The notes under the pieces: generated by a model | Databases searched by the model: none | The model's input: only the letters and a program-made list of their open reading frames with translations | What the model was told of the DNA's origin: nothing | Part shown: in pieces, positions 43,401-61,897 of the stretch | Position numbering within the stretch: position 1 is the stretch's first letter | Layout of the letters: each line of letters starts with the position of its first letter | NCBI GenBank assembly: GCA_024275575.1 | Contig: JAJRYV010000130.1 | Coordinates: forward strand, 60,565 to 124,564 | Direction of reading: 5' to 3' | Length of the DNA stretch: 64,000 nucleotides | DNA from: a bacterium | Lineage (GTDB): Bacteria > Zhuqueibacterota > Zhuqueibacteria > Zhuqueibacterales > Geothermadaptataceae | Translations under genes and position numbers: made by a program

Positions 43401-43435
43401 CCTGACGTGCGATGCATGCTTGACGACAAACCTTT

Positions 43436-43527: not shown

Positions 43528-43618
43528 TTTTAATTTTCTTTTTCAGGTTCCGGTTTATCCGGGTTAGGAATTTTAACATCATAATGTGCAAAACGAACGG
43601 CTGCAATCAATAAAAAGT

Positions 43619-44597
43619 TCAATCCATATGGGTTAATGCTTCTGCAAAGCGCTCCGCCTGCTTCTGCCAGGTATTTTTCCGGGCGATTTCGACCAGCTTT
43701 TCACGGTCGATTTGATCGGATTTTTCGATGTTCGCGAGAAAGTCAGCGTGAGTAGGGCTGATCAGTACCTCGGCATCGCGGGAGGCGAGGTTGTCCAGGC
43801 TGCTAACGACTGGCAGACCGAGGGCATAAAACTGGTAGATTTTTGAGTTGTTGATATCGAAGGTGAGTTCGTTTAGCAAAAAAGGGATAATACCGACATC
43901 ATTTTGCGCGATGGCTTTCGGCACTTTGCTGATGGGTAATTTGCCGAGGTAGTTAACTTTCGGGGGCAGGGTGATTCGTTTTTCCCCGGCCATTGCCACC
44001 TGATGGATTTCGCAGAGCTTCTCTACCAGCTCGATGTCCATCCAGTCAAATATCGCGCCGATGTAGATTAAACGCTTCAAAATCCACTCCATTTCCTATG
44101 TAAACAGCATCCTGCCGGTAGCGCTGCCACTCTTTTGATGATACGATGACTTTGTCGGCTAACTTGACTGTTTCGTTAAAATTATCTTCCACCCAATCAG
44201 GCACGCCAAAACCAACGGGAATATCGTTGATATCCACGACCAGTCTAAGTGCAAATTTCCGGAAGACCCGAGGAGTGAAAATGCCGTAGTTGCTGACAAG
44301 AGCGATATCGGCACACCCTGCAAAGGGTCGAAGAATGAGAAACTTAATAAAAAGATAATTAACTGCAGCAATGAGACGGCGAGCCAGGACAAAATTAAAT
44401 AGCTTGTCCAGTCCTTTTTTATAACAAAAGATTGTGCGTACTTTAACATTTTCATCCTTATACCATGACCATTTGCTGCCGAGCCGGAAAGGCTCGACGT
44501 AGATTATTTGCCAATTTTTCGGCAAGCGGCTCAAAATGCCGCGTTTGCGGTGGTGCATATAATTCCATTGCACTTCGGCGAAGAAAATTATTTTCAT
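43619..44597 (-). pseudogene. GT-B glycosyltransferase (TuaH-like) split by a frameshift at about 44046-44092
   Basis: ORF 44046..44597 encodes the N-half ('MKIIFFAEVQWNYMHHRKRGILSRL...VYIGNGVDFEAF'). ORF 43619..44092 encodes the C-half in another frame ('KRLIYIGAIFDWMD...VGIIPFLLNELT...SKIYQFYALGLPVVSS'). The total length of 979 nt is not divisible by 3. Confidence 0.65.
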
Positions 44598-45176
44598 TTA
44601 TCTTTCGGAAACCCTGTCAGGGCTGGCTTTTTCAAGTAAATAAAAATGATAGTGGTGAAAAAACAACCGGTAAAGCGGTCGCACGCCGGTGAAATGCCAC
44701 CACCACGGAAACGCGTGCCCCACCTGATATTTTACCGTTTGAAATCCGGCTTCAGCGAATAAAAAATATAGCGAACGTTTGGTGTATTCGGTAAAGTGCA
44801 CCTTTTCTACGGCTGGTTTGCGTGTCGGGGTGCTCAGTGCGAGCATACCGTCATCTGCAAGCAAATTATGCAGCTCATGCATGAAAGTCAACGGGTTCAT
44901 CAAATGTTCAATCACTTCGAAACAAAAGATGGTTTTATAGCTTTTCTGCGGTGCGGTGACGCTGAAATTGAAATCGGTTTCACCGGTGGAATCGATCTGC
45001 TCACCGAATTTTTGCGCTAAAATATCCGTTGCCTGGCTCCATGTGCCGATGTCGAGAAATGGGCCTTGCAGGTTTTCGTTGTTTAAAAATTTCAGGGTTG
45101 CCCGCATGCGCCAGGCAATCTGTTTGCCGATCTGTGGTTGTACGGTCAGAAAATTGTCGGGCTTTTCAATGCTCAT
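44598..45176 (-). CDS. Class I SAM-dependent methyltransferase-like protein (degenerate motif I)
   Basis: 'FLDIGTWSQ' sits where motif I (LDiGcGtG) should be. A conserved post-I region follows: 'IFCFEVIEHLMNPLTFMHELHNLLADDGMLALSTP'. The stop TAA (44598-44600) directly abuts the ATG of the downstream glycosyltransferase. The ATG at 45176 is preferred to the track start at 45239. Confidence 0.6.
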   Translation of the reverse strand: MSIEKPDNFLTVQPQIGKQIAWRMRATLKFLNNENLQGPFLDIGTWSQATDILAQKFGEQIDSTGETDFNFSVTAPQKSYKTIFCFEVIEHLMNPLTFMHELHNLLADDGMLALSTPTRKPAVEKVHFTEYTKRSLYFLFAEAGFQTVKYQVGHAFPWWWHFTGVRPLYRLFFHHYHFYLLEKASPDRVSER

Positions 45177-45775
45177 TATCAATTCGCGCCGCTGGTTTGT
45201 CCTCGATGAAATAAAGAGTAATTTAGCATATCTGCTCAATTTACCAATAAAATTTTGTGCCTGTTCAATTGCCGTTGTTTGAGGGGATTTCCTTCCGGTT
45301 TGTCATCTGTAAAGCGATGTCGATCTATTTGTGATTTAACCGAGTCGTCCTGCTGCGAGCAACAAATTTTCAACATGTTAATTCTCATTCACCAGCTTTA
45401 GTTCCTCAGCTCAAAGCCGATTCAAAAGTGGTGGAGACAGGTAACAACCGTTTAGCCCACGAATGCTTGCCGGGGATTTAAGCCCCCGTGTTCGCTTATC
45501 CGGGAATCCCCCAATGGAAAAAATGGTGGGATTATGCGAACGACAAGCAAGAAGAAAACCGCACCAGACGGAAAGAGGCTGAACTATTATGCTTTCCCCT
45601 ATGCCGTTTTCCTTGCGGTTTAAAAGCAAGGGTGTGTTGAGTTCAAACCAACGGGTTTCGGCTCTGCTAAATTGCCCGGTTTGAAATGTATGGAATTTCA
45701 GGTCTATATCATCGTGCTCGCAGGCCTGGTGATATTCACATTTAGAAATTGGTTTATTTTTATGGTGGGAATTGA

Positions 45776-47662
45776 ATGAAAACCGGTACTTTTGAGAGAA
45801 TCTACACTGATTTCGTCGAAAACGTTCGAACTCAGTTTATCAATAGTGATGTGTTGATTCAGAATGTGCAGTCGCAAACTGCGGGAGTTTATGAAAACCT
45901 TGCGGACAAGCTGCCGCGCATCATCGAACAAATCGATTCCAGCAGTAATGAAGCACGAGCGCTGGTGAATTATTTTATCACGGCGGATGATAAGCAATAC
46001 GGTGTGAGTATTGTGGGGAAAGAGCTGGAGCAGGCGCGCAACAAACTGCGTGAGGCCTCAAAGTCAATTCATGAAATGCGCAGTGTCGATTTGACTCTTT
46101 TCCGGCGCATTCAGGAACAGGTTAATCAAATAGAAACCATTCATGGATCGATAACTTCGATTTCGAAAATTTCTGATGATATCGAATTGCTCTCTTATAA
46201 TTCCGGGTTTGTCGCCAGCCGGGCAGGGGTAAGCGGAGCGGCCTTCACCTATATCGCGGCGGAAATTAAAAAGTTATCCAATCGCACGAAGAAACTGGTC
46301 AACCGTATGCGCACCAGCACTGACGGCCTTATCAATAGCTACCGGGAATTTAATCAGGCAATTGAAAAAATTAATGATGAAACCGATTCAAAACTCGATG
46401 GTATTGATGAAAATCTGGCGACTATTTTTGAGCGTTATCATGATAGCTTAAAAAATATTGCCTCATTGCTCGAGCAAAGTCTCAGGCGTTCTGAAGATGC
46501 TAAAAAAAGCGTCTTTTCGGTGATGACTGCATTGCAGGATCAGGATATTATTCGCCAGTCGCTGGAGCAGGTCACCAGCTTAAATAATCGGTTCAGCAAG
46601 GAAACAGAGCTGGCCTATCAGAGCATGGCGCTCGATTCTATCCCTGAAGTACACAGGTTGGAGATTGCCGAGCAGGCGACGGCAAAACTGATTTTGATGA
46701 CGCAGATTGCTGATCCGATGATCAAGGGCATTATTGAGAATCTCGAGAATTCTCTGAAAAAACTGGTGAGTTTCCTCAACATATTCCATGCCGAAGTGCA
46801 GGATATTGAGAATGATCGCGGCGCCCTGGTGGATTTTTTTGCTAACGCACAGAGCGATCTGGGCGACCGCAGCAGTATTGATCTGATTTTTGATGAATCC
46901 GGCAATGTTATGCAGGAACTGATTTATTTTATCAAGCAGTCGATCAGCAAGAAACGTGACGCCAGCGATCTGGGGAATTGCCTGATACAATTTATGAATA
47001 CGACGGAGAGCTGTTTCGAGGAGATGCAGGATATTGTCAAAGCCTTTTCACTGATCAAAGTGGCTTCCAAAATGGAAATAGCCCGGGAACAGGAATTATC
47101 GAAAAATATCACGACTTCATCGGAAATGTTTGAAGAGCTGACCAATAAAATGGAAGAGATGATCGTGCAATTGCGGCGGCAGCTTGTTGCGGCCAACCAG
47201 AGCATTCACGAAAGCCTGCAGACGCTCAATGATAACCTGACATTGCAGGAAGAAAATGTCGAGCAAGTGAGTGCAAAAATTGAGGTTTCGAGCCAGAATT
47301 TGGAAAACATGCGTATCAATCTCAACCAGGCTGTGCGTTCAGTGGGCAAAGAATCCACTGCGCTTTTCAAGCTCATCGATGATTCTCTCGATGGCGCCGG
47401 GAAATTACAGAAGATGGCTGAAACTTCCGGCCAGTTATCTTCTAATTATGAATCGGTGCGTAATTTGGCGGAAACAGTGCGCCGGCATGGGGCCCAGTTC
47501 TATCCCGTCATTTTCAACAAAACGCCGTCTTTTGACCGCTTCGACGATATTAAAAAAGTAGTCGAAAAATTTGCGGTTTACTCCGATAAATATATAGCGA
47601 AACAGACGATGGAGCTGGAAATGGAGGAAGGCAGCGCTGGTGGTGATCTGACGCTGTTTTGA
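45776..47662 (+). CDS. Soluble coiled-coil protein with a divergent MCP signalling-tip-like segment (atypical chemoreceptor-like protein)
   Basis: No TM segment. 'DIELLSYNSGFVASRAGVSGAAFTYIAAEIKKLSNRT' aligns with the canonical tip of the in-window MCP, '[37 protein letters not shown]'. The rest is heptad-rich. It is the first gene of the che operon. Confidence 0.55.
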   Translation: MKTGTFERIYTDFVENVRTQFINSDVLIQNVQSQTAGVYENLADKLPRIIEQIDSSSNEARALVNYFITADDKQYGVSIVGKELEQARNKLREASKSIHEMRSVDLTLFRRIQEQVNQIETIHGSITSISKISDDIELLSYNSGFVASRAGVSGAAFTYIAAEIKKLSNRTKKLVNRMRTSTDGLINSYREFNQAIEKINDETDSKLDGIDENLATIFERYHDSLKNIASLLEQSLRRSEDAKKSVFSVMTALQDQDIIRQSLEQVTSLNNRFSKETELAYQSMALDSIPEVHRLEIAEQATAKLILMTQIADPMIKGIIENLENSLKKLVSFLNIFHAEVQDIENDRGALVDFFANAQSDLGDRSSIDLIFDESGNVMQELIYFIKQSISKKRDASDLGNCLIQFMNTTESCFEEMQDIVKAFSLIKVASKMEIAREQELSKNITTSSEMFEELTNKMEEMIVQLRRQLVAANQSIHESLQTLNDNLTLQEENVEQVSAKIEVSSQNLENMRINLNQAVRSVGKESTALFKLIDDSLDGAGKLQKMAETSGQLSSNYESVRNLAETVRRHGAQFYPVIFNKTPSFDRFDDIKKVVEKFAVYSDKYIAKQTMELEMEEGSAGGDLTLF

Positions 47663-47713: not shown

Positions 47714-48031
47714 ATGATGGATATTGAAATTAGCACAAATGGCAATTCCATTAATGCAAAAGTCGTCGGGACCATGACCGAGGCCGATTCGGATGCAATC
47801 AAAAAAGGCTTTAATAAATTGCGCGATGCCAACGCCTCGAAAGTTGTCATTGATCTATCCCATGTGCCGACGATCTCCAGTTCGGGGATCGGCAAATTGA
47901 TTGCACTGTATCGCCGCGTGAAAGAGCAAAATCGCCAATTTGAGATCGATGGTATCCATGAGAATTTGTATGCCTTGTTCACCTCGATCCATCTGAATAA
48001 ATTGTTCACAATTAAACAAACTGGCGACTGA
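47714..48031 (+). CDS. STAS-domain anti-sigma-factor-antagonist-like protein (SpoIIAA/RsbV type)
   Basis: 105 aa. 'KVVIDLSHVPTISSSGIGKLIALYRRVKEQNRQFEIDGIHENLYALF' has the D-L-S..(x)..SSG phosphorylatable-serine context. Confidence 0.8.
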   Translation: MMDIEISTNGNSINAKVVGTMTEADSDAIKKGFNKLRDANASKVVIDLSHVPTISSSGIGKLIALYRRVKEQNRQFEIDGIHENLYALFTSIHLNKLFTIKQTGD

Positions 48032-48065
48032 ATTTTATTTATAATTGAGAATTGGTACCTTTGTA

Positions 48066-48443
48066 ATGGCAAAAAAAATATTAGTCGTCGATGATTCGGC
48101 GACGACACGATCATCGGTGCAATACATTTTAGCACAGGCCGGTTATTCCGTTGCACTGGCAAACGATGGCTCTGACGGTTTGCGAAAAATCGAGGAAGTG
48201 ACCCGCGCCGGAGACACGTTATCGATGATCATTACGGATATTAACATGCCGGTGATGGATGGCATCAGATTTACGCGCGAGGTGAAAAGTGGACCGCACC
48301 GTGGAACGCCGGTGCTCGTTCTGACAACGGAATCACAGCAATCCAAAAAACAGCAGGGTAGGGAAGCGGGCGCTGCGGGCTGGCTGGTCAAACCATTCCA
48401 GCCGGATCAACTTGTAACCGTTGTGCGCAAACTGGCAGGATAG
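48066..48443 (+). CDS. cheY: CheY-like single-domain response regulator
   Basis: 'KKILVVDDSATTR...MIITDINMPVMDG...VLVLTTES...WLVKPF' has all canonical receiver residues (DD, D, T, K). The ATG at 48066 is preferred to the TTG at 48045. Confidence 0.85.
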   Translation: MAKKILVVDDSATTRSSVQYILAQAGYSVALANDGSDGLRKIEEVTRAGDTLSMIITDINMPVMDGIRFTREVKSGPHRGTPVLVLTTESQQSKKQQGREAGAAGWLVKPFQPDQLVTVVRKLAG

Positions 48444-48472: not shown

Positions 48473-51184
48473 ATGGGGAAACCCGAAGAATTAATGCAAA
48501 TTTTTCTCGATGAGAGCCGGGAATTAATTGAAAGTCTGGATCAGAATATCGTCGCTTTCGAGGATGATCCGCAAAACAAACCGCTGTTAGATGATATCTT
48601 TCGCGCCTTTCATACGCTGAAGGGCAATGCCGGGCTCGTCGGTCTGAAAAAATTTGAAAAGATCGCCCACATCACCGAAGAGATATTATCGGATATTCGC
48701 GACGGCCGCGTCGAGATTACTGCCGAATTGATTTCATTTATGCTCGAAGCGCTCGATCGCCTGAAAATATTGCATGAAGCGGTGGAAAAAACCAATTCCG
48801 ATGATGTGGAAATTGAGATGGACAGTCTGTCCAAACCGACAGGCGACGAAACGCAAAATGATCAATCTGTGACGCCGGAATCATCAGATTCTGTCCAGGC
48901 TGAAGAGACCGCTATCGAAAATGAAGTCGTCTCTGAGGACGGCTCCTGGGGGCTTTTCCCTGAAAATATTGAAGATAGACCCATGGAAACCGGCGATAGC
49001 CGCGAGGAACTGATCGAGCAAGCTGATGAGTTCGAAACCGCGGCTGAATTGAGTTCGAATGCGGCAAAAGCTGCCGGTGAGGCAGCAACGAAAAAAACGG
49101 ACGTGCCCGAGAGCTGGAATAAACCTGAAACCGCGATCCGTGTTGATGTCGGGTTACTCGACAGGATGATGAATCTTGTTGGCGAGCTGGTACTGTCACG
49201 TAATCAGATTTTGCAATTCGTACCGCAATTTGAAAATTCTAATTTTGCCTCGACTTGCCAGCGGCTTAACCTGGTGACGAGTGAATTACAGGAAAGCGTG
49301 ATGAAAACGCGCATGCAGCCAATCGGCAATATTTTTAATCGTTTTCGCCGTGTAGTGCGGGATGTCGCGAAGGATACCGGCAAACTGGTCAATCTGAAAA
49401 TTGAAGGACAGGAAACCGAGCTCGATAAAACGATTATCGAAGGCATTCGGGACCCGTTGACGCATCTGGTGCGCAATGCGATCGATCATGGCATTGAAAA
49501 CGAAAAAAAACGCAAAACCCAGGGCAAACCTCCCTGCGGCACATTAGTTTTGCGGGCATATCACGAAGGCGGCCAGGTCAATATCGAGATCATCGATGAC
49601 GGTGCCGGAATGGATGTGCGAAAAATCAAGAATAAAGCCATCGAGAGGCAACTCATCACGCCGGAGCAGGCGCAGAAAATGGCGGATAAAGACGCCCTGG
49701 GGCTCATTTTTCAGCCGGGATTTTCCACTGCCGCCAAAATTACAAATATTTCCGGCCGTGGCGTCGGTATGGATGTCGTGCGTACCAATATCGAAAAAAT
49801 CGGTGGTTCGGTTGAACTCAACAGCATCCACGGGCAGGGTTCGACAATTAAAATAAAGATTCCCCTGACTTTGGCGATTATTCCGGCGCTTGTTTTAAAA
49901 TGTAATGACCAGCGTTTTGCCATTCCACAGGTGAGTTTGCTCGAACTCGTTCTGCTTGAAGGCGATAATATACGACAGATCGAAAAAGTAGGCGATGCGG
50001 AAATTTACCGTTTGCGCGGCAAGCTGTTGCCGATAATCCGTCTCAGCGAGATGTTGAAATTACCGGCCAGGGCGCCATTACCAGAGGAGGCGGTCAGTAT
50101 TATCGTGCTTTCGGCCGATAATACCGAATTTGGTCTCATCGTCGATGAAATCCTCGATACGGAGGAAATCGTCGTCAAACCTCTGAGCAAACATTTGAAA
50201 AATATCCGTGCTTTTGCCGGGGCAACGGTGATGGGGGATGGTAAAGTTGCCCTTATTCTCGATGTCGTCGGGCTGGTGGAAAGAGCGGCTTTGCAACTGG
50301 ATAAAGGCGCGCGAGAATTGCATAGCACTGAGGCGCAAAAGAAAGCCGAGACCGGAACCTTGCATACTCTACTACTTTTTACCCTTGCTGAAAATGAATA
50401 TTTCGCCGTGCCATTATCGCTGGTTGCACGCCTGGAAACTTTCCCGGCAAACGCGGTCGAACAGGCCGGCAGTAGCCCGGTTATGCAATATCGCGGCAAT
50501 ATCATGCCACTGATTCGCCTTGATTCAGTGCTGCCGGTTAATCCGATGCCGGAAAATGAGAATATTTCCGTGCTCACTTTCAAAGTCGACAATAATGACG
50601 TCGGGCTGGTGGTCAATGAGATTATCGATGTCATTGAAACGCGCGACAAACTGGATAGTGAGGCGCTGAATGAATCCGGTATTTTGGGCTCGGTGGTGTT
50701 AAACGGCAAAGTGACCGTTCTCGTCGACGCCTTTGAAATCATCAAAGGGGAATTCCCGCACTGGTTCGATAAAAAAGGGCTGGGGCCGGAGATCGAATAC
50801 GAAAATCAGCGGGTACTCATCGTCGATGATTCGACGTTCATTCGCTCCACTTATCGCACCTATCTCGAACCCGAAGGTTTTACGATTGTCGAAGCTGAGA
50901 ATGGTGAAGAAGCGCTGGAAATCATTTCCGCTGACAGCTTTGATTATATCATTACAGATATCGAAATGCCGCAAATGGACGGGCTTGAGCTGACAAAAAA
51001 TATTCGTGCCAACAAAAAGCTGCGTGATTTGCCGATCATCGTTTCTTCCAGTCTGGCGAACGAGGACGATATACGGCGCGGCAAGGAAGCGGGTGCCGAT
51101 GCTTATCTGAAGAAAATTGATCGCGTTAGTTTGCTCAACGCCCTGGAAATGGCCTCGACAGAAAATGAAAACGGGGAGAACTAA
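48473..51184 (+). CDS. cheA: Hybrid CheA histidine kinase: Hpt - acidic linker - dimerisation - HATPase - CheW-like x2 - receiver
   Basis: Hpt 'FRAFHTLKGNAGLVGL'. P3/P4: 'IRVDVGLLDRMMNLVGELVLSRNQ', 'DPLTHLVRNAIDHGIE', 'DDGAGMD', 'GRGVGMDVV'. First CheW-like domain: 'QRFAIPQVSLLELV...FGLIVDEILDTEEIVVKPL'. Second: 'EYFAVPLSLVARLE...VGLVVNEIIDVIE'. REC: 'VLIVDDSTFIR...IITDIEMPQMDG...YLKKI'. Confidence 0.9.
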   Translation: MGKPEELMQIFLDESRELIESLDQNIVAFEDDPQNKPLLDDIFRAFHTLKGNAGLVGLKKFEKIAHITEEILSDIRDGRVEITAELISFMLEALDRLKILHEAVEKTNSDDVEIEMDSLSKPTGDETQNDQSVTPESSDSVQAEETAIENEVVSEDGSWGLFPENIEDRPMETGDSREELIEQADEFETAAELSSNAAKAAGEAATKKTDVPESWNKPETAIRVDVGLLDRMMNLVGELVLSRNQILQFVPQFENSNFASTCQRLNLVTSELQESVMKTRMQPIGNIFNRFRRVVRDVAKDTGKLVNLKIEGQETELDKTIIEGIRDPLTHLVRNAIDHGIENEKKRKTQGKPPCGTLVLRAYHEGGQVNIEIIDDGAGMDVRKIKNKAIERQLITPEQAQKMADKDALGLIFQPGFSTAAKITNISGRGVGMDVVRTNIEKIGGSVELNSIHGQGSTIKIKIPLTLAIIPALVLKCNDQRFAIPQVSLLELVLLEGDNIRQIEKVGDAEIYRLRGKLLPIIRLSEMLKLPARAPLPEEAVSIIVLSADNTEFGLIVDEILDTEEIVVKPLSKHLKNIRAFAGATVMGDGKVALILDVVGLVERAALQLDKGARELHSTEAQKKAETGTLHTLLLFTLAENEYFAVPLSLVARLETFPANAVEQAGSSPVMQYRGNIMPLIRLDSVLPVNPMPENENISVLTFKVDNNDVGLVVNEIIDVIETRDKLDSEALNESGILGSVVLNGKVTVLVDAFEIIKGEFPHWFDKKGLGPEIEYENQRVLIVDDSTFIRSTYRTYLEPEGFTIVEAENGEEALEIISADSFDYIITDIEMPQMDGLELTKNIRANKKLRDLPIIVSSSLANEDDIRRGKEAGADAYLKKIDRVSLLNALEMASTENENGEN

Positions 51185-51666
51185 TGGATAATTATTATGA
51201 AATGAGCGCCGCAACCAACACGGCCACTTGCCAATATGCAACTTTTTATCTCGACGGTGAGTTTTTCGGCATCGACGTCATGCGTGTCCAGGAAATTTTA
51301 CGGCAACAATCGATGACGCCGATTCCCCTGGCGCCGGAATATATCTGCGGTCTGATCAATTTGCGCGGACAAATCGTAACGGCGATGGATTTGGGTAAAA
51401 AATTGACCAATCGCCCTGGTGAGTGTAAAACAGATGGTATGAATATCGTCGTGGCAACGCAGGAGAATTCCCTCAGCCTGGTTGTCGATGAAATTGGCGA
51501 CGTGCTCGATATCGATGATGAAGCGATTGAACCCGTTCCTGCGACGCTGAATAAGATTAAAGCGAAGTTTCTCAAAGGAGTTTATAAACTAAACAACGAT
51601 TTATTGCTTTTACTGGATGTGCATAACATCGTGGAAGACGTCGATATTCGTATTGGAGCTGCTTAG
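51184..51666 (+). CDS. cheW: CheW coupling protein
   Basis: 'YATFYLDGEFFGIDVMRVQEIL...APEYICGLINLRGQIVTAMDL...LSLVVDEIGDVLDI'. The start overlaps the cheA stop (TAATG, 51182-51186). Confidence 0.9.
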   Translation: MDNYYEMSAATNTATCQYATFYLDGEFFGIDVMRVQEILRQQSMTPIPLAPEYICGLINLRGQIVTAMDLGKKLTNRPGECKTDGMNIVVATQENSLSLVVDEIGDVLDIDDEAIEPVPATLNKIKAKFLKGVYKLNNDLLLLLDVHNIVEDVDIRIGAA

Positions 51667-51744: not shown

Positions 51745-53412
51745 ATGGCGACCCTTGACAAAACAAGAGATGAAGCAAATGAGGTAAAAATCGTTGAACA
51801 GGCAAAAATCAAATCGATTGAATCCCTGCATCCCGATGCAGTTATCCCGGTTGATGAACATGCAGACAGCGATATCCTTGGTATTTCAAAAACTGCACTG
51901 GACTGCCTGCAAACAAATGTATTTATCGGCACGACTGATTTCCGGCTGGTTTATGCCAATAAAAAAGCGATTGAGACAATTCGTTATTTAGAACCTGAAA
52001 TTAAACGTGTGTTCAATGTTGGCCTCGATGACATTCTCGGCGGCTCGATTCACCGTTTCCATCGCGATCCTGCGGCAGTAGAGAAGATTCTCACCAACCC
52101 GGCTGCTTTGCCGCACCAAAAAGCTTTCGCTTTCGGCAATGTCGTTCTCTCGACGAATATCAATGCGATTAAAGACCCAAAGGGTGAAATTCTCGGCTAT
52201 GTTGTCAACTGGGAAGATGTCAGTGAATCGGTACGGCAAGCGAAAGAGACGGCCCGATTGCATTCGGCCATTGACGGAACCTCCACTGCGATGATGATGA
52301 TCGACCGGGATTTTGTTATCACCTATGTCAACCCGGCGACGACAAAACTGTTTCAGAAACATGAAACGACTTTCCAGAACTCTTTTCCCGGATTCGACGC
52401 GAACAGCCTGCTTGGCTCCTGCATCGACAAGTTTCATGCAAATCCTGAACGCCAGCGGACATTATTGAGCAATCCGGCAAATTTGCCTTACAGTACTAAT
52501 ATTACCATCGGTGATTTGCATTTTACTCTCAATATAACGGCGATGATTGATGAGAAAGGTGATTTTATCGGAAATACGATGGAATGGTATGATATCACCG
52601 ACAAATTTCAGGTAAAAGACGGCACAGCGAGTTCGGTGCAGGAGTTGGCCAAAGCTGCGTCAAATCTGCTGGATATCAGCAACCAAATCGCAAGCAATGC
52701 GGAAGAAACCTCTATGCAATCCAATAATGTTTCTGATGCCAGTAGCCAGGTGAGTATGAATATCGATAATGTTGCCGCCGCAATCGAGGAGATGAATACC
52801 GCAATCAAGGAAATTGCCAACCGTGCCGGTGAGGCTTCTAACATCACCGATAATGCCGTCACCATTGCCTCGGGTGCCAACGAGACGATTTCCAGTCTCG
52901 GCGACAGTTCGAAGGAAATCAGCAAAGTGATCAAAGTCATCACTTCAATCGCCCAGCAAACAAACCTTTTGGCGCTCAATGCAACTATTGAAGCGGCGAG
53001 AGCCGGAGAAGCGGGAAAAGGGTTTGCTGTTGTCGCCAATGAAGTGAAAGAACTGGCAAAAGAAACAGCTTCGGCTACGGAAGATATCACGCAGATTATC
53101 GAGAAAATTCAGAAGGATACCGAAGGTTCGGTTGATTCTGTAAAACAGATTGTCAGTATTATTAAAAATATCAACGATATCTCCAACACCATTGCCGCTG
53201 CTGTTGAAGAACAATCGGTAACAGCCGCTGATGTCGCAAATAATGTTGCGCAGGCATCGACGAGCGCTGCAACGATCGTTGATAATATTGGTCAGGTGAC
53301 CCAGGCCGCAGCAGAAACTTCTGCGGGCGCGGAACAAATGCGGAATCATTCGCAGGAATTATCCGAGCTTTCCAGGCTTCTGGAATCCCAGGTGAGTAAA
53401 CTTGAACTTTAA
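51745..53412 (+). CDS. Soluble methyl-accepting chemotaxis protein with two N-terminal PAS-like domains
   Basis: No TM segment. PAS-like 'DFRLVYANKKAIETIRYL' and 'DRDFVITYVNPATTKLF'. The canonical MCP tip is 'IAQQTNLLALNATIEAARAGEAGKGFAVVANEVKELAKETASAT'. Confidence 0.9.
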   Translation: MATLDKTRDEANEVKIVEQAKIKSIESLHPDAVIPVDEHADSDILGISKTALDCLQTNVFIGTTDFRLVYANKKAIETIRYLEPEIKRVFNVGLDDILGGSIHRFHRDPAAVEKILTNPAALPHQKAFAFGNVVLSTNINAIKDPKGEILGYVVNWEDVSESVRQAKETARLHSAIDGTSTAMMMIDRDFVITYVNPATTKLFQKHETTFQNSFPGFDANSLLGSCIDKFHANPERQRTLLSNPANLPYSTNITIGDLHFTLNITAMIDEKGDFIGNTMEWYDITDKFQVKDGTASSVQELAKAASNLLDISNQIASNAEETSMQSNNVSDASSQVSMNIDNVAAAIEEMNTAIKEIANRAGEASNITDNAVTIASGANETISSLGDSSKEISKVIKVITSIAQQTNLLALNATIEAARAGEAGKGFAVVANEVKELAKETASATEDITQIIEKIQKDTEGSVDSVKQIVSIIKNINDISNTIAAAVEEQSVTAADVANNVAQASTSAATIVDNIGQVTQAAAETSAGAEQMRNHSQELSELSRLLESQVSKLEL

Positions 53413-53570: not shown

Positions 53571-53936
53571 ATGAAGGCACTTACAGTAGATGATTCACAA
53601 ACTGTCCGTGTGATGGTGCGCAATATTCTCGAAGATAATGAGATTGAAGTTTTGGAAGCGACCAACGGACGGGAAGCATTGCAAATCGTACAGGAAAACG
53701 AGGGTATCGACGTCATCCTGCTCGATTGGGAAATGCCCTTGATGAACGGCTATGAATTCCTCACAGAAGTACGCCGGCATAAACTCGCTGAGAATACGCG
53801 TATTATTATGCTGACGACTTTAAAAAAGATGAGCAATATATTGCAGGCCATCGATGCCGGCGCTGATGAGTACATCATGAAACCGTTCACCCCGGAAATG
53901 GTCATTGAAAAAATTGAGAGTGTTTTACACAATTAA
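53571..53936 (+). CDS. cheY: CheY-like single-domain response regulator
   Basis: 'ALTVDDSQTVR...VILLDWEMPLMNG...IIMLTT...YIMKPF', a canonical receiver. Confidence 0.85.
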   Translation: MKALTVDDSQTVRVMVRNILEDNEIEVLEATNGREALQIVQENEGIDVILLDWEMPLMNGYEFLTEVRRHKLAENTRIIMLTTLKKMSNILQAIDAGADEYIMKPFTPEMVIEKIESVLHN

Positions 53937-53946
53937 TAAAGTTTAA

Positions 53947-55020
53947 ATGATGTTGCGAATATTAGTAGTCGACGATTCAGCACTTTACCGCAAGACCATC
54001 AGCGATATTCTTAACGCTGATCCGGCAATCGAAGTTGTCGGGACGGCACATAATGGACGAATGGCACTGGAAAAAATACCGCGTTTATCTCCAGATGTGA
54101 TCACGCTCGACATGGAAATGCCAGAGATGGACGGCCTGGCAACACTGAAAATACTACGCCGTGATTTCAATAATGTGAAAACGGTTGTTTTCAGCGCCCA
54201 TACCGAGCGCGGCGCAGAATTGACTATCGAGGCACTCAACCTGGGTGCAGTCGATTTCGTCACAAAACCGGGCCGCAATCAAAAAATGGATGCCAGTCTT
54301 GAGCAGATGAAGCAGGAGCTTCTGCCCAAAATTCTGGCCTTTGCCCAGCGCAATCGAACCCGATCTTCGCTTGCTCGTGATAACAAGCAGCAACAAAAGA
54401 CAGGAATCGTTGCCGTACCGGTGCGCTCTTTTCCCCGCCCGGTTGTGAAAAAACGACAGGTCATCGCCATTGGTGTCAGCACCGGTGGCCCGAAAAGCCT
54501 GGAAGTCTTCTTTCACAGCTTGCCCGCATCTCTGAATCCGGCGATTCTGATCGTGCAGCACATGCCGCCGATTTTCACCCGCAAGCTCGCAGAACAACTG
54601 GGTCGGGATGGGAAAATCCCGGTCTGTGAAGCACAGGATGGCGAAGTTATTAAAAGCGGCCACGCTTACATTGCACCCGGTGGCCAACATATGACGGTTA
54701 GAAATGGTGGTGCAGAAATAATTGTCAGTCTGAATGCCGATCCGCCGGAAAATTTTTGCCGCCCGTCGGTCGATGTGCTGTTCCGTTCCGTTGCTGAAGC
54801 CTACGGCCAACGAGCTATCGGAGTTATCATGACCGGCATGGGGGATGATGGCTGCGCGGGCAGCCGGGTGATGAAAGAAACCGGCATCCCCATCATTGCA
54901 CAAGATGAAGAAACCAGCGTCGTCTGGGGTATGCCCGGTGCAGTTGTCAAAAATGGCCTGGCTGATAGAATTTCGCCGTTGAAAAAGATTTATGCAACGA
55001 TTTGTGATTACAGCCTATGA
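53947..55020 (+). CDS. cheB: Chemotaxis response regulator protein-glutamate methylesterase
   Basis: REC 'ILVVDDSALYR...VITLDMEMPEMDG...FVTKP' plus an esterase domain with the catalytic contexts 'GVSTGGPKSL', 'IVQHMPP', 'TGMGDDGCAG'. Confidence 0.9.
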   Translation: MMLRILVVDDSALYRKTISDILNADPAIEVVGTAHNGRMALEKIPRLSPDVITLDMEMPEMDGLATLKILRRDFNNVKTVVFSAHTERGAELTIEALNLGAVDFVTKPGRNQKMDASLEQMKQELLPKILAFAQRNRTRSSLARDNKQQQKTGIVAVPVRSFPRPVVKKRQVIAIGVSTGGPKSLEVFFHSLPASLNPAILIVQHMPPIFTRKLAEQLGRDGKIPVCEAQDGEVIKSGHAYIAPGGQHMTVRNGGAEIIVSLNADPPENFCRPSVDVLFRSVAEAYGQRAIGVIMTGMGDDGCAGSRVMKETGIPIIAQDEETSVVWGMPGAVVKNGLADRISPLKKIYATICDYSL

Positions 55021-55210: not shown

Positions 55211-55292
55211 TGCCCTTTTTAAAAATTTGTCAATAATGCAGGATAAAATTTCGAATATTTGAATTCGATTCATTTTCAAAGCAGACTTGCGA

Positions 55293-56171
55293 ATGATAGA
55301 AGTACAAACACAATCAGTAACCGATGACATCAGCCCATCACAAATCGATTTTATTTCCGATTTTATCTACAGAAAAACCGGCATCGTTTTAGGGCAGAGC
55401 AAGAAATATCTCATCACCAGCCGGCTCTATAGCGTGGCGCGTATCTTGGGCAAGGATTCCTTACTCGCTGTCATCGAAGAGTTGCGGCTGCGCCCGACGC
55501 GTCAATTGGAAACGCTGGTGATCGATGCATTAACAACTAACGAAACTTTGTGGTTCCGTGATAAAAAACCGTTCGATGCATTGACTTCGAAGATCTTGCC
55601 GTTTTTGCATACAGTAAAAAAGGAAAAGGAACTGAGCATCTGGTCTGCAGCCTGCTCCAGCGGTCAGGAGGCTTATTCAATCGCCATGCTGCTGCATACC
55701 TGTGATTTATTTACAGACTGGAAAATCAATATATGGGCGACCGATATTTCTTCGCAGATATTGGAACGGGCAAAAAAGGCAACATATACGCAAATGGAAA
55801 TCAGTCGTGGCTTGCCTGTGCAATATCTGTTGAAATACTTCACAGAAAGCGATGATGATAATTGGACTTTGAATGAAGTCATTAAAAAGCTCGTCACATT
55901 TGAGCATTTTAATCTCCAGACAGAGCAGGCGCCGCCGTCGAAGTTCGATCTGGTGTTTTGCCGCAATGTGCTGATCTATTTTGACCGTGAAACAAAAAAT
56001 AAAATTCTCGATAATATCCTGAAAGTATTGCTGCCGCACGGCCTGCTTCTCGTTGGCGGGGCCGAGTCGACGTTGGGTATTCACAAACAATTCCAGCCGC
56101 TGCGCTTTGATTCAGCGATTTTTTACGGCGCTGAAACCAGTGGCGCATTTTGGGCGGAAATAGCGGGTTGA
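55293..56171 (+). CDS. cheR: Chemotaxis protein methyltransferase
   Basis: CheR_N helices are followed by the SAM domain 'IWSAACSSGQEAYSIAMLL', 'IWATDISSQILERAKKATY', 'FDLVFCRNVLIYFD'. The ATG at 55293 is preferred to the TTG at 55287. Confidence 0.9.
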   Translation: MIEVQTQSVTDDISPSQIDFISDFIYRKTGIVLGQSKKYLITSRLYSVARILGKDSLLAVIEELRLRPTRQLETLVIDALTTNETLWFRDKKPFDALTSKILPFLHTVKKEKELSIWSAACSSGQEAYSIAMLLHTCDLFTDWKINIWATDISSQILERAKKATYTQMEISRGLPVQYLLKYFTESDDDNWTLNEVIKKLVTFEHFNLQTEQAPPSKFDLVFCRNVLIYFDRETKNKILDNILKVLLPHGLLLVGGAESTLGIHKQFQPLRFDSAIFYGAETSGAFWAEIAG

Positions 56172-56210: not shown

Positions 56211-57131
56211 ATGATGAATCAAATCTTGTTAATCGAAAGCAAAAGCGAAATTACCAACCTGTTCATAGCTTTTTTTAAGGGAAAAAATTTCCTTTTCCGC
56301 GCTGTTACCGATGCAGTTGAGGCCTTGCGGCTAATCGACAAAGATAAAAGCATCGAACTGGTCTTTATCAACTGTGAAAATGCCGGTATGGACGGCCTGG
56401 AATTTTTACGTATATGCAGTGTCAATCACCCGGATTTACTCGTTGTGTTGTTCTCTGATCAGATGGATACAGCAAAATTAGGCTTCGCATTGCGCTACCG
56501 GGCATTTGATTTTCTCACTTTGCCTGTTGAGCATGAGCAGATCGGGAATGTCGTCAAGCGGGCTGCTTTAACATTTAACCGCCAGGACCGGCATTGGCGG
56601 GCAGCACGATTTGTTCATGATGTCGACTTTGCCCTCACCTCGAAAGCTGCTGATTTATCTATCGAATTTATCCGTGATGCGGTGAAAAAAATGCTTTTTC
56701 GCTATACACCGATCAATAGCAATGCCGTCGAAAATATTCTCCTGGCCCTGTGTGAAGCTATCCAGAATGCCCTGGATCACGGTAGCCTCGAACTCGATTC
56801 AACCCTCAAAGACCAGCCCGGGGAAAATGATTATGAATCGATGTTTGATGTGGTGAAGCGGCAGCGCCTGGAACAGGTCGAATATGGTGGCCGTAAAATT
56901 GCCGTGCGCATGCGCATCGAAACGGAAAAATTACAGATTTCCGTTGCCGATGAAGGTGCCGGGTTCAAAGCTGAAATCAGGGATGAAGCAAGCGGCAATG
57001 TTTATGGAATGGGATTGATGCTCATCCGAAATATCGTCGACCGGGTCTATTTTAATGAAAAAGGGAACAAGATTACTTTCGAAAAAAATGTCGAATTACC
57101 AGATAATTTCGCCGAACCCGCTCCTCTCTGA
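56211..57131 (+). CDS. Pseudo-receiver fused to an RsbW/SpoIIAB-like GHKL serine-kinase (anti-sigma-factor-type) domain
   Basis: The N-terminal REC fold has substituted key residues (see findings). C-terminal N-box 'LCEAIQNALDHGSLEL', G1 'ISVADEGAGF', G2 'VYGMGLMLIRNIVDRVYFNEKGNKITFEK'. There is no HisKA/H-box. Confidence 0.7.
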   Translation: MMNQILLIESKSEITNLFIAFFKGKNFLFRAVTDAVEALRLIDKDKSIELVFINCENAGMDGLEFLRICSVNHPDLLVVLFSDQMDTAKLGFALRYRAFDFLTLPVEHEQIGNVVKRAALTFNRQDRHWRAARFVHDVDFALTSKAADLSIEFIRDAVKKMLFRYTPINSNAVENILLALCEAIQNALDHGSLELDSTLKDQPGENDYESMFDVVKRQRLEQVEYGGRKIAVRMRIETEKLQISVADEGAGFKAEIRDEASGNVYGMGLMLIRNIVDRVYFNEKGNKITFEKNVELPDNFAEPAPL

Positions 57132-57310
57132 CCAGCTGTTTCCGTGTCTGAAATCTGTCTCCGCACCGATATCTGAAATTTTTATTTCTCCTTGCATGTT
57201 TTGTTATTTGTGCTAACTCAGACAGTGAAAATCAGTAGTTATTCCTGTTTAACCACTCTTGAGCCGTCATTTTCAAACCGGAGTTGATCATTTTATTCTC
57301 CAGGTGAGGT

Positions 57311-58210
57311 ATGTTCGAAAATATTCTTTTTTTAGAAAAAGATCAGCAATTACGAAAAACAGTATTTGAGATTTTGCAGAATAACGGGTACAATGTCATT
57401 TGTACCGAACGCATCAAACCGGCATGTGAAATCATTCGTGAAAGTAACGCCGATCTGGTGATCGCCGATATCAGGGGTGAACGTCAATCAGGATTTGAAA
57501 TCCTGCGCTGTCTGAATGAAATGCACCCGCCAATTCCCAGTATTCTGATTGTCAGAAAACATTATGATGAAACCGTTCTGCGTGCAATCAGGCTCGGCGT
57601 CTTTGATTTGCTCGTCGAGCCTCTGCGGCAAGATGACCTGTTGCAAACGATTAAAAGGGCGGAATATCTTTTCTATGCAACACGGCTTAAATCCGGTTTC
57701 CCCAATTTGGTAAAAAATATGACTATAAATTTGGAGTTTAGCTCAAAAGATTTTCAGCTTGATGAAATTCAGAAAGTTTTTCAGGATACCTTGCTTGATT
57801 ATTCAAAATTTTCGCCGGATGATTTTCTGACCATCTGGCTTGGTGTCGAAGAGGCTTTGCTCAACGCCCTGGAGCATGGTAATCTTGAATTGAAATCGAG
57901 CTGGAAAGATGAGCTTTTGGGCGGCGTTGAATTCTCGAAGTTTGAAGAAGTGCGCAAGGAACGACTGGCTGATCCATTCTTTGGCGAACGCAAAATCAAA
58001 ATGGAAATTGAGATGAAAAATGGACAATTGCAAATTACAATTGAAGATGAGGGGCCGGGGTTTGAGAATCGTGGACCCGGGTTAGACGCATCGCACGATG
58101 TCTACGGCCGTGGGCTGTCGATCATCGATAATATTATGGATTCGATGGAGTTTAATGAAAAGGGTAACCGCATCGTCATGCGCAAGGCTTTTGGATGGAA
58201 TAAAAAATGA
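57311..58210 (+). CDS. Degenerate receiver fused to an RsbW/SpoIIAB-like GHKL serine-kinase domain (paralogue of 56211..57131)
   Basis: Same architecture. 'GVEEALLNALEHGNLEL', 'ITIEDEGPGF', 'VYGRGLSIIDNIMDSMEFNEKGNRIVMRK' are colinear with the upstream paralogue. Confidence 0.7.
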   Translation: MFENILFLEKDQQLRKTVFEILQNNGYNVICTERIKPACEIIRESNADLVIADIRGERQSGFEILRCLNEMHPPIPSILIVRKHYDETVLRAIRLGVFDLLVEPLRQDDLLQTIKRAEYLFYATRLKSGFPNLVKNMTINLEFSSKDFQLDEIQKVFQDTLLDYSKFSPDDFLTIWLGVEEALLNALEHGNLELKSSWKDELLGGVEFSKFEEVRKERLADPFFGERKIKMEIEMKNGQLQITIEDEGPGFENRGPGLDASHDVYGRGLSIIDNIMDSMEFNEKGNRIVMRKAFGWNKK

Positions 58211-58262: not shown

Positions 58263-59945
58263 TTACTTTGCCGTCAAATAGGATTGTCGTAAAGCCTGCA
58301 ATTCAGCTTTTTTCAGTGCTTCATCCCAGCCCAGTTCCGCAGCCATAATTTCAGCACATTTTTCTGCTGCCGCATCCCCCGGATAACCGCCGGAACCGAG
58401 TTCGGTACGCCGCTTGACGACATCGACGAGACGCTGTGCCATTTCACGGCGTATGCCGTGAATGATCTCTGCCTGTAATACTTTCGAAGCCGCATCAACA
58501 GGCGCTTTCCAGTCTTCATTTTCATCGATGAGTTGCAGTACCTCCGGATAAGCTGTGCCGAAATTGAGAATGAGATGCTCAACAAAATCTGCACTCAGTC
58601 CCCAGGGCCTTTTCTTGCATTCTGTCTGCAGATAGGCCTTGAAATTTTCGATCTCGCCACCGCTGATTTTTGTGGTCTCTGTTTTTGAACGGTTATGTTT
58701 TTTAAGTTTTTTTGCCAGCAGATTCACGGCTTTTGCCGCTACGTCGCGGGCGGTTGTGTATTTTACTCCCAGCACGCTGAGGAGCCCTTCAAGCCCGTTT
58801 TCCGCCTGATGATCGAGCAGCTTGTAATGCTTGGTCAATTTGACATCATGCTCGGACAGCACTTCGCCCTCGTTATCCATGGGCAGCAAGCCGCCATAAT
58901 GATAAACCACCTCCTCGCGTTTTATAGCCATCGCCGGGTAGGCCTGGTTGAACTCATCGAGAAAAGTCGTGACATCGGTTTCGGAAATGGCAAAATCATC
59001 GGTCTCGCCGCTATACGGCACGTGTGTCGTGCCGATGAGTGTGTAGTTTCGCCAAGGAGTAAAAAACAGCAGGCGTGAGCCTTTGCTGATCACTGCATCT
59101 GCATCTTTAAATTCAAATTTGCTTGGAATGCCGGCGGCAAATGTATCGGTGAGACGCCGGTTGACGACGAGATTCATCGCTTTGGAAAGGCGGAATTGCT
59201 CAGCCGGCTGGTGACCGTTGAGCTGGCCGAGCACGTTATTGATCCACGGGCCGGAGGTATTCAAAACAATTTTGCTGCGAACTTCATATGGCTCACCACT
59301 AAAAATATCGTGAATTTTCACGCCGCGGATTTTATTTCCTGCAGTGATAAACCCGCTCACCCGGGTATAGTTGGCGGCTTCGGCGCCCAGCTCAACCGCC
59401 GATTTGATCACCGAAATGAGCATGCGTTCCGAGTTGTAAACCTGACAATCGTACCAGACCGCCCCGCCGGTGAGATTGGTTTCGTCCAGACCGGGCAGAA
59501 TTTCCAGCAATTCTTTTTTAGAAATCGCCTTGCCGCTGGGCAATATTTTTTGCGCGTCGCAGCCGCGATTTCGATCGAAACCGATGATATCATTCATCAG
59601 CATGGCGATACGCATGATTTCCCTGCCTTTGACGCCGTGGCCGTAAGTCGGCATGACGCAGGGCAGAGGATGCACAAACTGCGGCGCGATACGCATCAAC
59701 ACTTTGCGTTCGTGGATCGATTCGCGCATGCGTTTGATATCGAGATGCTGCAGATAGCGCAAGCCGCCGTGAATGATTTTCAGACTATTGGATGAAGTCG
59801 CGCCACCGAAATCATTTTGCTCGATCAATACTGCAGAAAGGCCACGCAGCGTGGCATCCCAAAGCGCCCAGGCGCCGTAAATGCCGCCACCGATGATAGC
59901 GACATCATATTCGCCGGAGGTAAGTTTCTTTAAATCTCTGATCAT
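58263..59945 (-). CDS. glpD: FAD-dependent glycerol-3-phosphate dehydrogenase/oxidase (GlpD-like)
   Basis: 'YDVAIIGGGIYGAWALWDATLRGLSAVLIEQNDFGGATSSNSLKIIHGGLRYL' plus a C-terminal helical domain; 560 aa. Confidence 0.8.
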   Translation of the reverse strand: MIRDLKKLTSGEYDVAIIGGGIYGAWALWDATLRGLSAVLIEQNDFGGATSSNSLKIIHGGLRYLQHLDIKRMRESIHERKVLMRIAPQFVHPLPCVMPTYGHGVKGREIMRIAMLMNDIIGFDRNRGCDAQKILPSGKAISKKELLEILPGLDETNLTGGAVWYDCQVYNSERMLISVIKSAVELGAEAANYTRVSGFITAGNKIRGVKIHDIFSGEPYEVRSKIVLNTSGPWINNVLGQLNGHQPAEQFRLSKAMNLVVNRRLTDTFAAGIPSKFEFKDADAVISKGSRLLFFTPWRNYTLIGTTHVPYSGETDDFAISETDVTTFLDEFNQAYPAMAIKREEVVYHYGGLLPMDNEGEVLSEHDVKLTKHYKLLDHQAENGLEGLLSVLGVKYTTARDVAAKAVNLLAKKLKKHNRSKTETTKISGGEIENFKAYLQTECKKRPWGLSADFVEHLILNFGTAYPEVLQLIDENEDWKAPVDAASKVLQAEIIHGIRREMAQRLVDVVKRRTELGSGGYPGDAAAEKCAEIMAAELGWDEALKKAELQALRQSYLTAK

Positions 59946-61504: not shown

Positions 61505-61897
61505 TTAGATTTCCAGATCATCCTGTGGCAGGGTGAATGTGTCGCGCATGATGACGAGGATAGCCGACTGCGGCAGGATGAGGTATCTTTTTTGCTCCCA
61601 CTGGATTTCGACTGCAGACTTTTTGAGAAAAAGTGCGTAGTCACCATTTTCGACTTGCATAGGTAGATATTTTGGAGCGTTTTGCGAGTTTTGCCAGGGT
61701 TCATCACCATCGCTGCCGGGGTCGGCAAGTGGAATGCCCGGACCCACATCTGCGACCCAGCCGCCCTGTACCTGCTCTTTTTCGGTAACGCTTTGCGGCA
61801 AGTAAAGTCCCACCTGCGTGCGCTGTTCTTTATCGTCGGGTTCGATTAAAACCCGGTCTCCGATGACGATGAGTTTTTTATGTTGCGGTGATTGCAT
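61505..61897 (-). CDS. GroES/Cpn10-fold protein with an inserted loop, not linked to groEL
   Basis: 'LIVIGDRVLIEPDDKEQRTQVGLYLPQSVTEKEQVQGGWVADVGPG...VENGDYALFLK...YLILPQSAILVIM' is colinear with GroES. A ~20-aa insert 'ADPGSDGDEPWQNSQNAPKY' brings it to 130 aa, against ~95 for GroES. Confidence 0.6.
   Translation of the reverse strand: MQSPQHKKLIVIGDRVLIEPDDKEQRTQVGLYLPQSVTEKEQVQGGWVADVGPGIPLADPGSDGDEPWQNSQNAPKYLPMQVENGDYALFLKKSAVEIQWEQKRYLILPQSAILVIMRDTFTLPQDDLEI

Follow-up and report, generated by a model that had tools for sequence, protein, structure and literature searches.

The window analysed here, a 64,000-nt stretch of contig JAJRYV010000130.1 from a bacterium of the Geothermadaptataceae, contains a co-directional operon resembling chemotaxis (che) operons, whose final two genes, g1 and g2, encode the proteins P1 and P2. 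Each combines a receiver-like (REC) domain with a GHKL, or Bergerat, ATPase domain, and in both cases the phosphorylation site of the receiver is degenerate (REC*). Their features are, in window coordinates:

56211..57131, + strand: P1 (g1), open reading frame (ORF) of 306 aa, LvrC-family REC*-HATPase_c_2 protein
56211–56564, approximately residues 1–118 of P1: pseudo-receiver
P1 residues 119–147: long linker helix and first strand
P1 residues 148–295: GHKL/Bergerat domain
57311..58210, + strand: P2 (g2), ORF of 299 aa, LvrC-family REC*-HATPase_c_2 protein
57311–57664, residues 1–118 of P2: degenerate receiver
P2 residues ~147–293: GHKL domain

A Pfam scan detected Response_reg (37.0 bits in P1 and 52.8 bits in P2, gathering cut-off 30.2) and HATPase_c_2, the RsbW/SpoIIAB-type GHKL family (58.9 and 58.2 bits, gathering cut-off 27.4). 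These were the only two domains returned by the scan, which gave no match to HisKA/DHp (the H-box) in either protein and no PP2C domain between receiver and kinase. P1 and P2 aligned over their full length with 28% identity (E=1e-35), which places their paralogy beyond chance. An original prediction, made from the sequence without database searches, had proposed two paralogous fusions of a receiver to an RsbW-like kinase lacking an H-box, and both the domain assignments and this alignment uphold it. AlphaFold monomer models reached pLDDT values of 91 for P1 and 88 for P2. The P1 receiver was modelled at pLDDT 93–97, with TMt values of 0.86–0.90 to solved receivers in Foldseek, and the interdomain linker of about 30 residues appeared as a single helix.

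A profile of 96 homologues matched the LvrC structure (PDB 9qih) over its full length (E=1.2e-49), and phmmer searches related P1 (E=2.9e-13) and P2 (E=4.7e-19) to the same entry, with coverage of residues 4–295 and 4–293, respectively. Moreover, 9qih was the best Foldseek match for both models, followed by receivers with TMt values of 0.8–0.9 for the N-terminal half, and SpoIIAB matched the GHKL half of the models with TMt values of 0.72–0.82 (0.82 for that of P1). LvrC (LIC11110) from Leptospira interrogans serves LvrB, a histidine kinase, as cognate response regulator, is phosphorylated by it on D53, and belongs to a family of receiver-regulated putative anti-sigma factors described in 2026 in Nat Commun (PMC13269768). 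Its crystal contains ADP:Mg, and the protein is a homodimer in which the alpha4-beta5-alpha5 face of each receiver packs on the Bergerat domain of the partner protomer, with I86, I90, L93, I102 and the Y-T-switch residue F100 as docking residues (PMC13269768). The chain name "SenB" in 9qih was also followed as a lead and discarded, as the literature under this name concerns unrelated proteins (the selenoneine SenB and a Shigella enterotoxin). Judged by architecture and homology, P1 and P2 are members of the LvrC family that lack a canonical phosphorylatable receiver.

The register of both receivers was taken from a MAFFT alignment with E. coli CheY and four canonical receivers of the window, from a HMMER alignment to the LvrC crystal sequence, and from the strand ends of the AlphaFold models. 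All three alignments and the two models concurred, the models locating the site residues at the C-terminal end of each of the strands beta1, beta3, beta4 and beta5:

CheY D12/D13: E9/S10 in P1, E9/K10 in P2
CheY D57 (phospho-acceptor): N54 in P1, D53 in P2
CheY T87 (Thr/Ser): S82 in P1, V81 in P2
CheY Y106: F101 in P1, L100 in P2
CheY K109 (Lys): L104 in P1, E103 in P2

The CheY used as reference (53571..53936) is canonical, DD/D/T/Y/K. With E/S, N, S, F and L in P1 and E/K, D, V, L and E in P2, neither protein has the residues of a canonical phosphorylatable receiver with its Y-T switch. P1 is an aspartate-less receiver, the fold being kept and the acceptor Asp gone (N54). P2, which retains Asp53, is by its residues a degenerate receiver and not an aspartate-less one. 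The pocket predicted for P1 (an E/S pair, Asn as acceptor and Leu in place of Lys) was reproduced by every alignment and by the model. That of P2 was right in its retained Asp, its EK pair and the change of Lys to Glu, and wrong at the Thr/Ser site, which is V81 and not an Arg; R82 is the following residue, at the position of CheY A88. A shift of register that would restore a canonical DD/D/T/K set, named beforehand as the finding that would overturn the proposal, appeared neither in the alignment to the LvrC structure nor in the models. Homologues had also been suggested as a check on whether the acceptor Asn of P1 is conserved, and it is not: five orthologues read N, N, S, S and T. Asn54 was consequently discarded as a conserved functional replacement, and this variation among orthologues indicates a loss and not a specific substitution.

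The ATP-binding motifs presented the opposite picture. In the 96-sequence family alignment, which includes P1 and P2, the residues E182 and N186 of the N-box, D247, G249 and G251 of the G1 box and G266 and G268 of the G2 box (P1 numbering) were invariant, in agreement with the N, G1 and G2 boxes predicted to be intact in both C-termini; at the sequence level, the motifs for ATP binding are preserved, and the second finding named beforehand as overturning the proposal, a GHKL domain lacking ATP-binding geometry, received no support from them. The insert that had been noticed after the N-box, HG(S/N)LEL..S..KD...RL, is likewise real. It is not specific to the pair, as had been supposed, since H190, G191, L193, E194, R219 and R228 were invariant or nearly so in the 96 REC-HATPase_c_2 sequences, and it was therefore rejected as a marker of P1 and P2.

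Receivers of this kind are uncommon in the family. Among 126 homologues of at least 250 aa, the acceptor Asp was kept in 119 and the Lys in 112, the exceptions being chiefly two small ortholog groups that hold P1 and P2. An exhaustive hidden Markov model search of 1.84 billion representatives returned 1,231 proteins at E<=1e-30, and 13 of 94 additional members of about 300 aa (14%) lacked Asp or Lys. Degenerate receivers are thus a sporadically recurring minority in the LvrC family, of which some 85–90% are canonical. Other canonical members were found as orphans or directly after a hybrid histidine kinase. In a Pirellulales metagenome-assembled genome (MAG; JAFGRD010000039.1, L014 1866-8217), the gene for a CHASE-PAS hybrid histidine kinase is followed by two tandem canonical REC-HATPase_c_2 genes, 53% identical and overlapping by 23 nt, and then by a gene encoding a STAS protein of 131 aa. 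This independent tandem indicates that LvrC-family pairs with a STAS protein recur below phosphorelay kinases.

The locus itself was syntenic in six genomes or contigs of the FCB group, assigned to KSB1, Calditrichota and a "Bacteroidetes" MAG, as a block of che genes, g1 and g2 followed by convergent genes for DAO, a methyltransferase and a Cpn10-like protein; when genomes were scanned with the g2-lineage alignment, only four species genomes matched. Two groups could be distinguished by their site residues:

Group A (L006/L007, L008 and L010): g1 canonical, DD/D/T/K; g2 H-(N/K)/D/A/R
Group B (the window, L003, L001 and the metagenomic P0002 and P0003): g1 E-x/(N,N,S,S,T)/(S,A,F)/(L,A,S); g2 E-K/D/V/E

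The g2 receiver is already degenerate in the three genomes of group A, where g1 is canonical, and both are degenerate in group B. Neighbour-joining analysis of 131 sequences (100 bootstraps) supported the clade of g1 plus g2 at 87%, and the g2 lineage and each g1 subgroup at 100%. The simplest history compatible with these sequences would start with an LvrC-type gene duplicating in tandem where a che operon ends, continue with early degeneration of the g2 receiver, and finish later, in group B alone, with g1 losing its acceptor Asp and its Lys.

To compare constraint on the two domains, identities were taken over the same organism pairs. The g2 receivers showed 60–69% identity against 68–75% for their GHKL domains, and the canonical g1 proteins within group A 76% against 74%. 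The degenerate g1 proteins of group B gave 29–36% for the receiver and 51–58% for the GHKL domain. Within the receiver of g2 the most conserved elements were alpha5 (0.94) and alpha4 (0.85), the values for degenerate g1 being 0.49 and 0.56, and the stretch LLQTIKRAEY at the end of alpha5 (P2 residues 110–119) was invariant in eight orthologues. At the positions aligned with the LvrC docking residues I90, L93 and I102, g2 proteins have L, I and V, still hydrophobic; the I102 equivalent is Ile in canonical g1 and T, S, C, K or S in degenerate g1. This pattern leads us to infer that docking through the 4-5-5 face persists in the g2 pseudo-receiver but not in the degenerate g1 receiver. Loss of the key docking hydrophobic residue, together with fast evolution, suggests that the P1 receiver is probably undocked or re-purposed. 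The best reading of these rates is that the P2 pseudo-receiver is a strongly constrained structural module and the P1 receiver a fast-evolving one, and a docking or decoy role is plausible above all for P2, where alpha4-beta5-alpha5 is the best-conserved part of the receiver. Furthermore, most g2 proteins have Lys at the position of CheY D13, and CheY bearing D13K is constitutively active (bioRxiv 10.1101/781468). By analogy, this Lys suggests that g2 receivers may be locked in an active-like state.

The remaining genes of the operon, which runs from a soluble methyl-accepting chemotaxis protein (MCP) through STAS, CheY1, CheA-REC, CheW, PAS-PAS-MCP, CheY2, CheB and CheR to P1 and P2, and the elements next to P1 and P2 are:

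45776..47662, + strand: MCP-like protein, first gene of the operon, soluble, 628 aa; weak MCPsignal match (41 bits) in the N-terminal third
47714..48031, + strand: single-domain STAS protein of the anti-sigma-factor-antagonist type (Pfam STAS, 49.4 bits)
48045..48443, + strand: CheY1, single-domain canonical receiver (DD/D/T/W/K)
48473..51184, + strand: hybrid CheA with Hpt, dimerisation, HATPase_c and two CheW-like stretches and a C-terminal canonical REC
51184..51666, + strand: CheW (Pfam)
51745..53412, + strand: PAS-PAS-MCP of Aer2-like layout, soluble, no transmembrane segment
53571..53936, + strand: CheY2, canonical receiver
53947..55020, + strand: CheB, REC plus methylesterase (Pfam CheB_methylest match on the L003 orthologue)
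55287..56171, + strand: CheR methyltransferase, directly upstream of P1
57132..57310, + strand: g1-g2 spacer, 179 nt, 40% GC
58263..59945, convergent to P2: FAD-dependent glycerol-3-phosphate-dehydrogenase-like protein (DAO)

The Hpt motif FHTLKG is present in this CheA. The MCP-like protein encoded first has no hydrophobic segment (maximum KD19 1.05) and is conserved at the same place in L003 and L017, loci from KSB1 and Calditrichota; one possible role for it is that of an atypical receptor in a cytoplasmic array. As neither MCP has a hydrophobic segment, the che system is cytoplasmic. Spacers between g1 and g2 measured 179–442 nt in all syntenic loci (the window, L001, L003, L006, L008 and L010), long for an operon, and were AT-rich in group B (35–40% GC). 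No conserved ORF or alignable element was found in the spacers across loci, and no Rfam family matched in the 44–62 kb region of the window. The spacer may hold an internal promoter allowing independent expression of g2.

Conserved small genes lie divergently upstream of the operon (42638-45239, - strand). Two ORFs of 157 and 183 aa without Pfam match and a Methyltransf_23 gene are syntenic in the Calditrichota locus L001; Methyltransf_23 and a neighbouring ORF without Pfam match are also present in L017, and a further ORF of 174 aa (42638-43162, - strand) has no Pfam match. On the other side, a 130-aa Cpn10-like protein (61505-61897, - strand), of which the Cpn10 profile covers residues 9–56 only, is syntenic in L001, L003 and L010, with no GroEL gene seen adjacent to it. 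At the far end of the window, 509-4558 (+ strand) encodes a hybrid histidine kinase of 1,349 aa, in which a Reg_prop beta-propeller/Y_Y_Y sensor is combined with HisKA, HATPase_c and a pair of receivers at the C-terminus. It is a possible further phosphodonor, though 50 kb from P1 and P2.

A natural experiment on the dependence of g1 and g2 on CheA was found in Calditrichota bacterium CLD2 (L001/L009; QQUE01000007.1), where the operon is cut down to STAS-CheY1-CheA'-g1-g2 and CheW, both MCPs, CheY2, CheB and CheR are missing. CheA' (L001 6783-8621, equal to L002 1747-3570; 612 aa) lacks HATPase_c, the region matching residues ~314–588 of the window CheA being gone, and its Hpt motif reads FRTLKD, with Arg in place of the phospho-His. 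In addition, the C-terminal REC of CheA' is degenerate and CheY1 has Ile instead of Thr. The independent assembly L002 is identical to L001 and confirms the deletion, and for the same reason a dN/dS comparison between the two gave no signal. Identities of the window to CLD2 were then set against those to a KSB1 genome with an intact system. Flanking housekeeping genes gave 78 vs 75% (DAO), 85 vs 82% (methyltransferase) and 82 vs 78% (Cpn10-like), and g1 (43 vs 41%) and g2 (71 vs 62%) followed this pattern. Three genes were accelerated in CLD2: STAS (56 vs 70%), CheY1 (58 vs 90%) and CheA (41 vs 72%). Normal constraint after collapse of the phosphorelay argues that the function of group-B g1 and g2 does not depend on phosphotransfer from this CheA, and the rate pattern constitutes the best available evidence for such independence. 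The original prediction had considered phosphorylation by CheA unlikely for P1 and doubtful for P2, and the persistence of g1 and g2 at a normal rate beside a dead CheA supports that view.

The reading that we favour, with a probability of roughly 60%, is that P1 and P2 are output kinases or anti-sigma factors of the partner-switch type that no longer take phosphate from CheA. By analogy, the Bergerat domain of the family would bind ATP and sequester a sigma factor and/or phosphorylate a STAS-type antagonist, P1 and P2 being the terminal output genes of a cytoplasmic, non-flagellar-looking che-like operon. The ancestral g1 receiver would have been phosphorylatable by CheA, with the g2 receiver already degenerate, and loss of the acceptor Asp and the Lys from g1 in the window lineage would have left neither protein a normal phospho-acceptor. 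The P2 receiver, keeping its LvrC-type docking surface and the Lys at D13, would most likely be locked in one signalling conformation and serve in a structural or regulatory capacity. The che system, if it still acts on P1 and P2, would do so only through protein contacts (with CheY~P, STAS or CheA) or through expression, and not by phosphotransfer.

Several observations weigh against this proposal. Whole-chain comparison of the monomer models with LvrC gave a TM-score of only ~0.45 and a root-mean-square deviation of ~14 Å, and the docked geometry is unconfirmed because the arrangement of the domains in these models differs from that of the LvrC crystal. In the LvrC family, the activities on record are the phosphotransfer and nucleotide binding of LvrC, an anti-sigma role having only been proposed (PMC13269768). 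Among the ORFs of 150 aa or more in the window, none carried a Sigma70 or SpoIIE/PP2C domain. The samples are small (5–9 orthologues per lineage), and as groups A and B of g1 were joined at a bootstrap value of only 47%, their orthology rests on synteny. Finally, the STAS gene always lies directly upstream of cheY1-cheA (L001, L003, L016, L017 and L018), and its acceleration together with CheY1 and CheA in CLD2 weakens a pairing of STAS with P1 and P2.

These last two facts lead to the alternative that survives best, which we regard as possible, if on the doubtful side: the partners of P1 and P2 would be encoded elsewhere, the operon STAS would belong to the chemosensory module, as the 5' antagonist does in F7 stage-1 clusters, and the linkage to che would mainly serve co-expression. 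The position of STAS holds even in more distant relatives, and its acceleration in CLD2 is shared with CheY1 and CheA' and not with g1 and g2. In the F7 "stage 1" clusters, moreover, the kinase/phosphatase has a second STAS gene of its own adjoining it (PMC7184735), and canonical LvrC-family members are often orphans or stand beside hybrid histidine kinases without STAS. However, STAS, g1 and g2 all survive in the reduced CLD2 locus, from which five che genes were deleted, and the Pirellulales pair described above does adjoin a STAS gene. The operon STAS also retains its phosphorylatable Ser, the Ser equivalent to SpoIIAA S58 and a Gly being invariant in the alignment with SpoIIAA; by this analogy it is a candidate partner or substrate of P1 and P2. 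There is no other STAS near them, the only other one in the window being 42 kb away in a polysaccharide cluster.

That second STAS protein (12977-14134, + strand; 385 aa) has an N-terminal STAS domain with the SpoIIAA-S58-equivalent Ser, a long low-complexity linker rich in Pro, Gln and Asn and a short C-terminal region without Pfam match, and it is surrounded by genes for Wzz/GNVR (11379), Poly_export (10212), TPR (14215) and ParA-like ATPase (15416) proteins. It recalls the SypA/SypE control of polysaccharides and is, by analogy, a possible second substrate of P1 and P2. In a more distant relative (L016 660-1682, a JGI metagenome contig), two tandem STAS genes precede a cheY1-like gene, echoing the two antagonists of F7 stage-1 clusters.

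We consider it unlikely that P1 and P2 form an obligate heterodimeric anti-sigma factor or serine kinase in which each pseudo-receiver clamps the GHKL domain of the other protomer, as the receiver does in trans in LvrC, with the cytoplasmic chemosensory array controlling the kinase without phosphotransfer to it. In such a complex CheY~P or STAS, for example, would bind the surface of a pseudo-receiver, and it would have arisen in steps from a heterodimer in which one receiver was live and the other dead, the state that group A genomes still show.

Improbable, too, is that phosphate is still accepted by P2, and conceivably by P1 at a different residue, CheA phosphorylating Asp53 non-canonically with Glu9 as metal ligand and the pair acting as a normal che output. 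Asp53 and the Glu at the first acidic position do leave room for non-canonical phosphorylation of P2: the Asp is kept in eight of nine g2-lineage proteins and the Glu at D12 is conserved in group B, while the canonical CheA, CheY1 and CheY2 of the window would make phosphate available, and Ser or Thr occupies the acceptor site in three of the five orthologues of P1. However, P2 lacks three of the five catalytic and switch residues (D13 to K, T87 to V and K109 to E), the first of these being the change found in constitutively active CheY (bioRxiv 10.1101/781468), and one orthologue (P0014) has His in place of the Asp. The acceptor of P1 is an Asn preceded by Ile, and g1 and g2 evolve at normal rates where CheA has neither its His nor its ATPase domain.

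That the receivers or the whole genes are functionless, decaying relics is very improbable and already largely refuted, for although the group-B g1 receiver evolves far faster than its kinase domain and does not conserve its acceptor, no genome has a broken ORF even where identity falls to ~30%, the GHKL motifs do not vary, conservation of the g2 receiver, with its 10-residue invariant stretch, comes close to that of the kinase domain, both receivers score above the Pfam cut-off and are confidently folded by AlphaFold, and rates match those of housekeeping neighbours.

P1 and P2 represent a lineage-specific variant of the LvrC family, distinguished by degenerate receivers and by tandem organisation at a che operon; the family has been defined from one Leptospira protein, and its output mechanism is still a proposal. 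As partner-switch-type outputs freed from CheA phosphate, they would also extend che-linked partner switching to the FCB group, beyond the CrsR/HsbR type of proteobacteria. The series found at this one operon, with a live and a dead receiver, two dead receivers, and two dead receivers beside a dead CheA, provides a natural comparison that could show how a receiver affects the Bergerat domain without phosphorylation, and whether heterodimers form. The practical weight of the finding is modest: the organisms are uncultured, pseudo-receivers are familiar, and current understanding is not overturned.

Compared with known systems, P1 and P2 are closest to LvrC, with which they share two domains in about 300 aa, the same GHKL motifs, the same insert after the N-box, the absence of a DHp domain or H-box and a position downstream of a phosphorelay kinase. 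However, the LvrC receiver is canonical (D10/D11, D53, T81, F100 and K103) and is phosphorylated by LvrB, whereas Asp and Lys are missing from P1, and the second acidic residue, Thr and Lys from P2. LvrC, encoded by a single gene, forms a homodimer and the upstream kinase is a receiver-controlled histidine kinase; here, a conserved tandem paralogue pair stands below CheA in a che operon. With SpoIIAB and RsbW, P1 and P2 share the HATPase_c_2 family, the N, G1 and G2 boxes, a SpoIIAB-like fold and the lack of a His-bearing dimerisation domain. SpoIIAB and RsbW are single-domain proteins encoded beside their own sigma factor and STAS antagonist, whereas the kinase domain of P1 and P2 comes with an N-terminal (pseudo)receiver, a long linker helix and an insert of ~30 residues after the N-box, with no sigma gene near.

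Pseudo-receivers and aspartate-less receivers, exemplified by FrzS, CikA, KaiA, ChxR and HP1043, likewise keep the receiver fold, have lost phosphorylation residues and presumably act through protein-protein contacts. These examples carry other output domains, and P2 is not strictly aspartate-less. E. coli CheY with D13K is active without phosphorylation and reportedly does not become phosphorylated; in P2 and the majority of its orthologues Lys is native to this position and D57 is kept. Since D13K is an engineered single change in a single-domain protein and P2 also has T87V and K109E, the analogy is only suggestive. The literature searched contained no report of a fusion between a pseudo-receiver and an RsbW-type kinase, none pairing a pseudo-receiver with anti-sigma or partner-switching functions, and none joining HATPase_c_2, receiver, STAS and chemotaxis.

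The arrangement of the operon can be compared with that of the F7 stage-1 clusters, which start with STAS-cheY-cheA and have partner-switch genes at the other end, in the order STAS-cheY-cheA-cheW(x2)-aer2-like MCP-cheR-cheD-cheB-MCP-STAS-Ser phosphatase (PMC7184735). The 5' part of the window operon matches, STAS-cheY-cheA-cheW-PAS-MCP; the operon differs in lacking cheD, a second STAS and a phosphatase and in the order cheB-cheR. CrsR/CrsA and the HsbR/HsbA proteins of Pseudomonas also combine a receiver with an RsbW-like domain, STAS protein(s) and a chemosensory cluster, and the Shewanella che1 locus with CrsR/CrsA controls RpoS (PMC9855816). In CrsR and HsbR the receiver is canonical and a PP2C domain lies between receiver and kinase, and the kinases of the F7 stage-1 and che1 loci have a STAS gene of their own next to them, whereas P1 and P2 have degenerate receivers and no PP2C domain. 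Compared with both CrsR/HsbR and F7 stage 1, the P1/P2 operon has one STAS gene, not adjacent to them, and two kinase genes. In the CrsR/HsbR-type and F7 stage-1 systems the output is partner switching, not motility.

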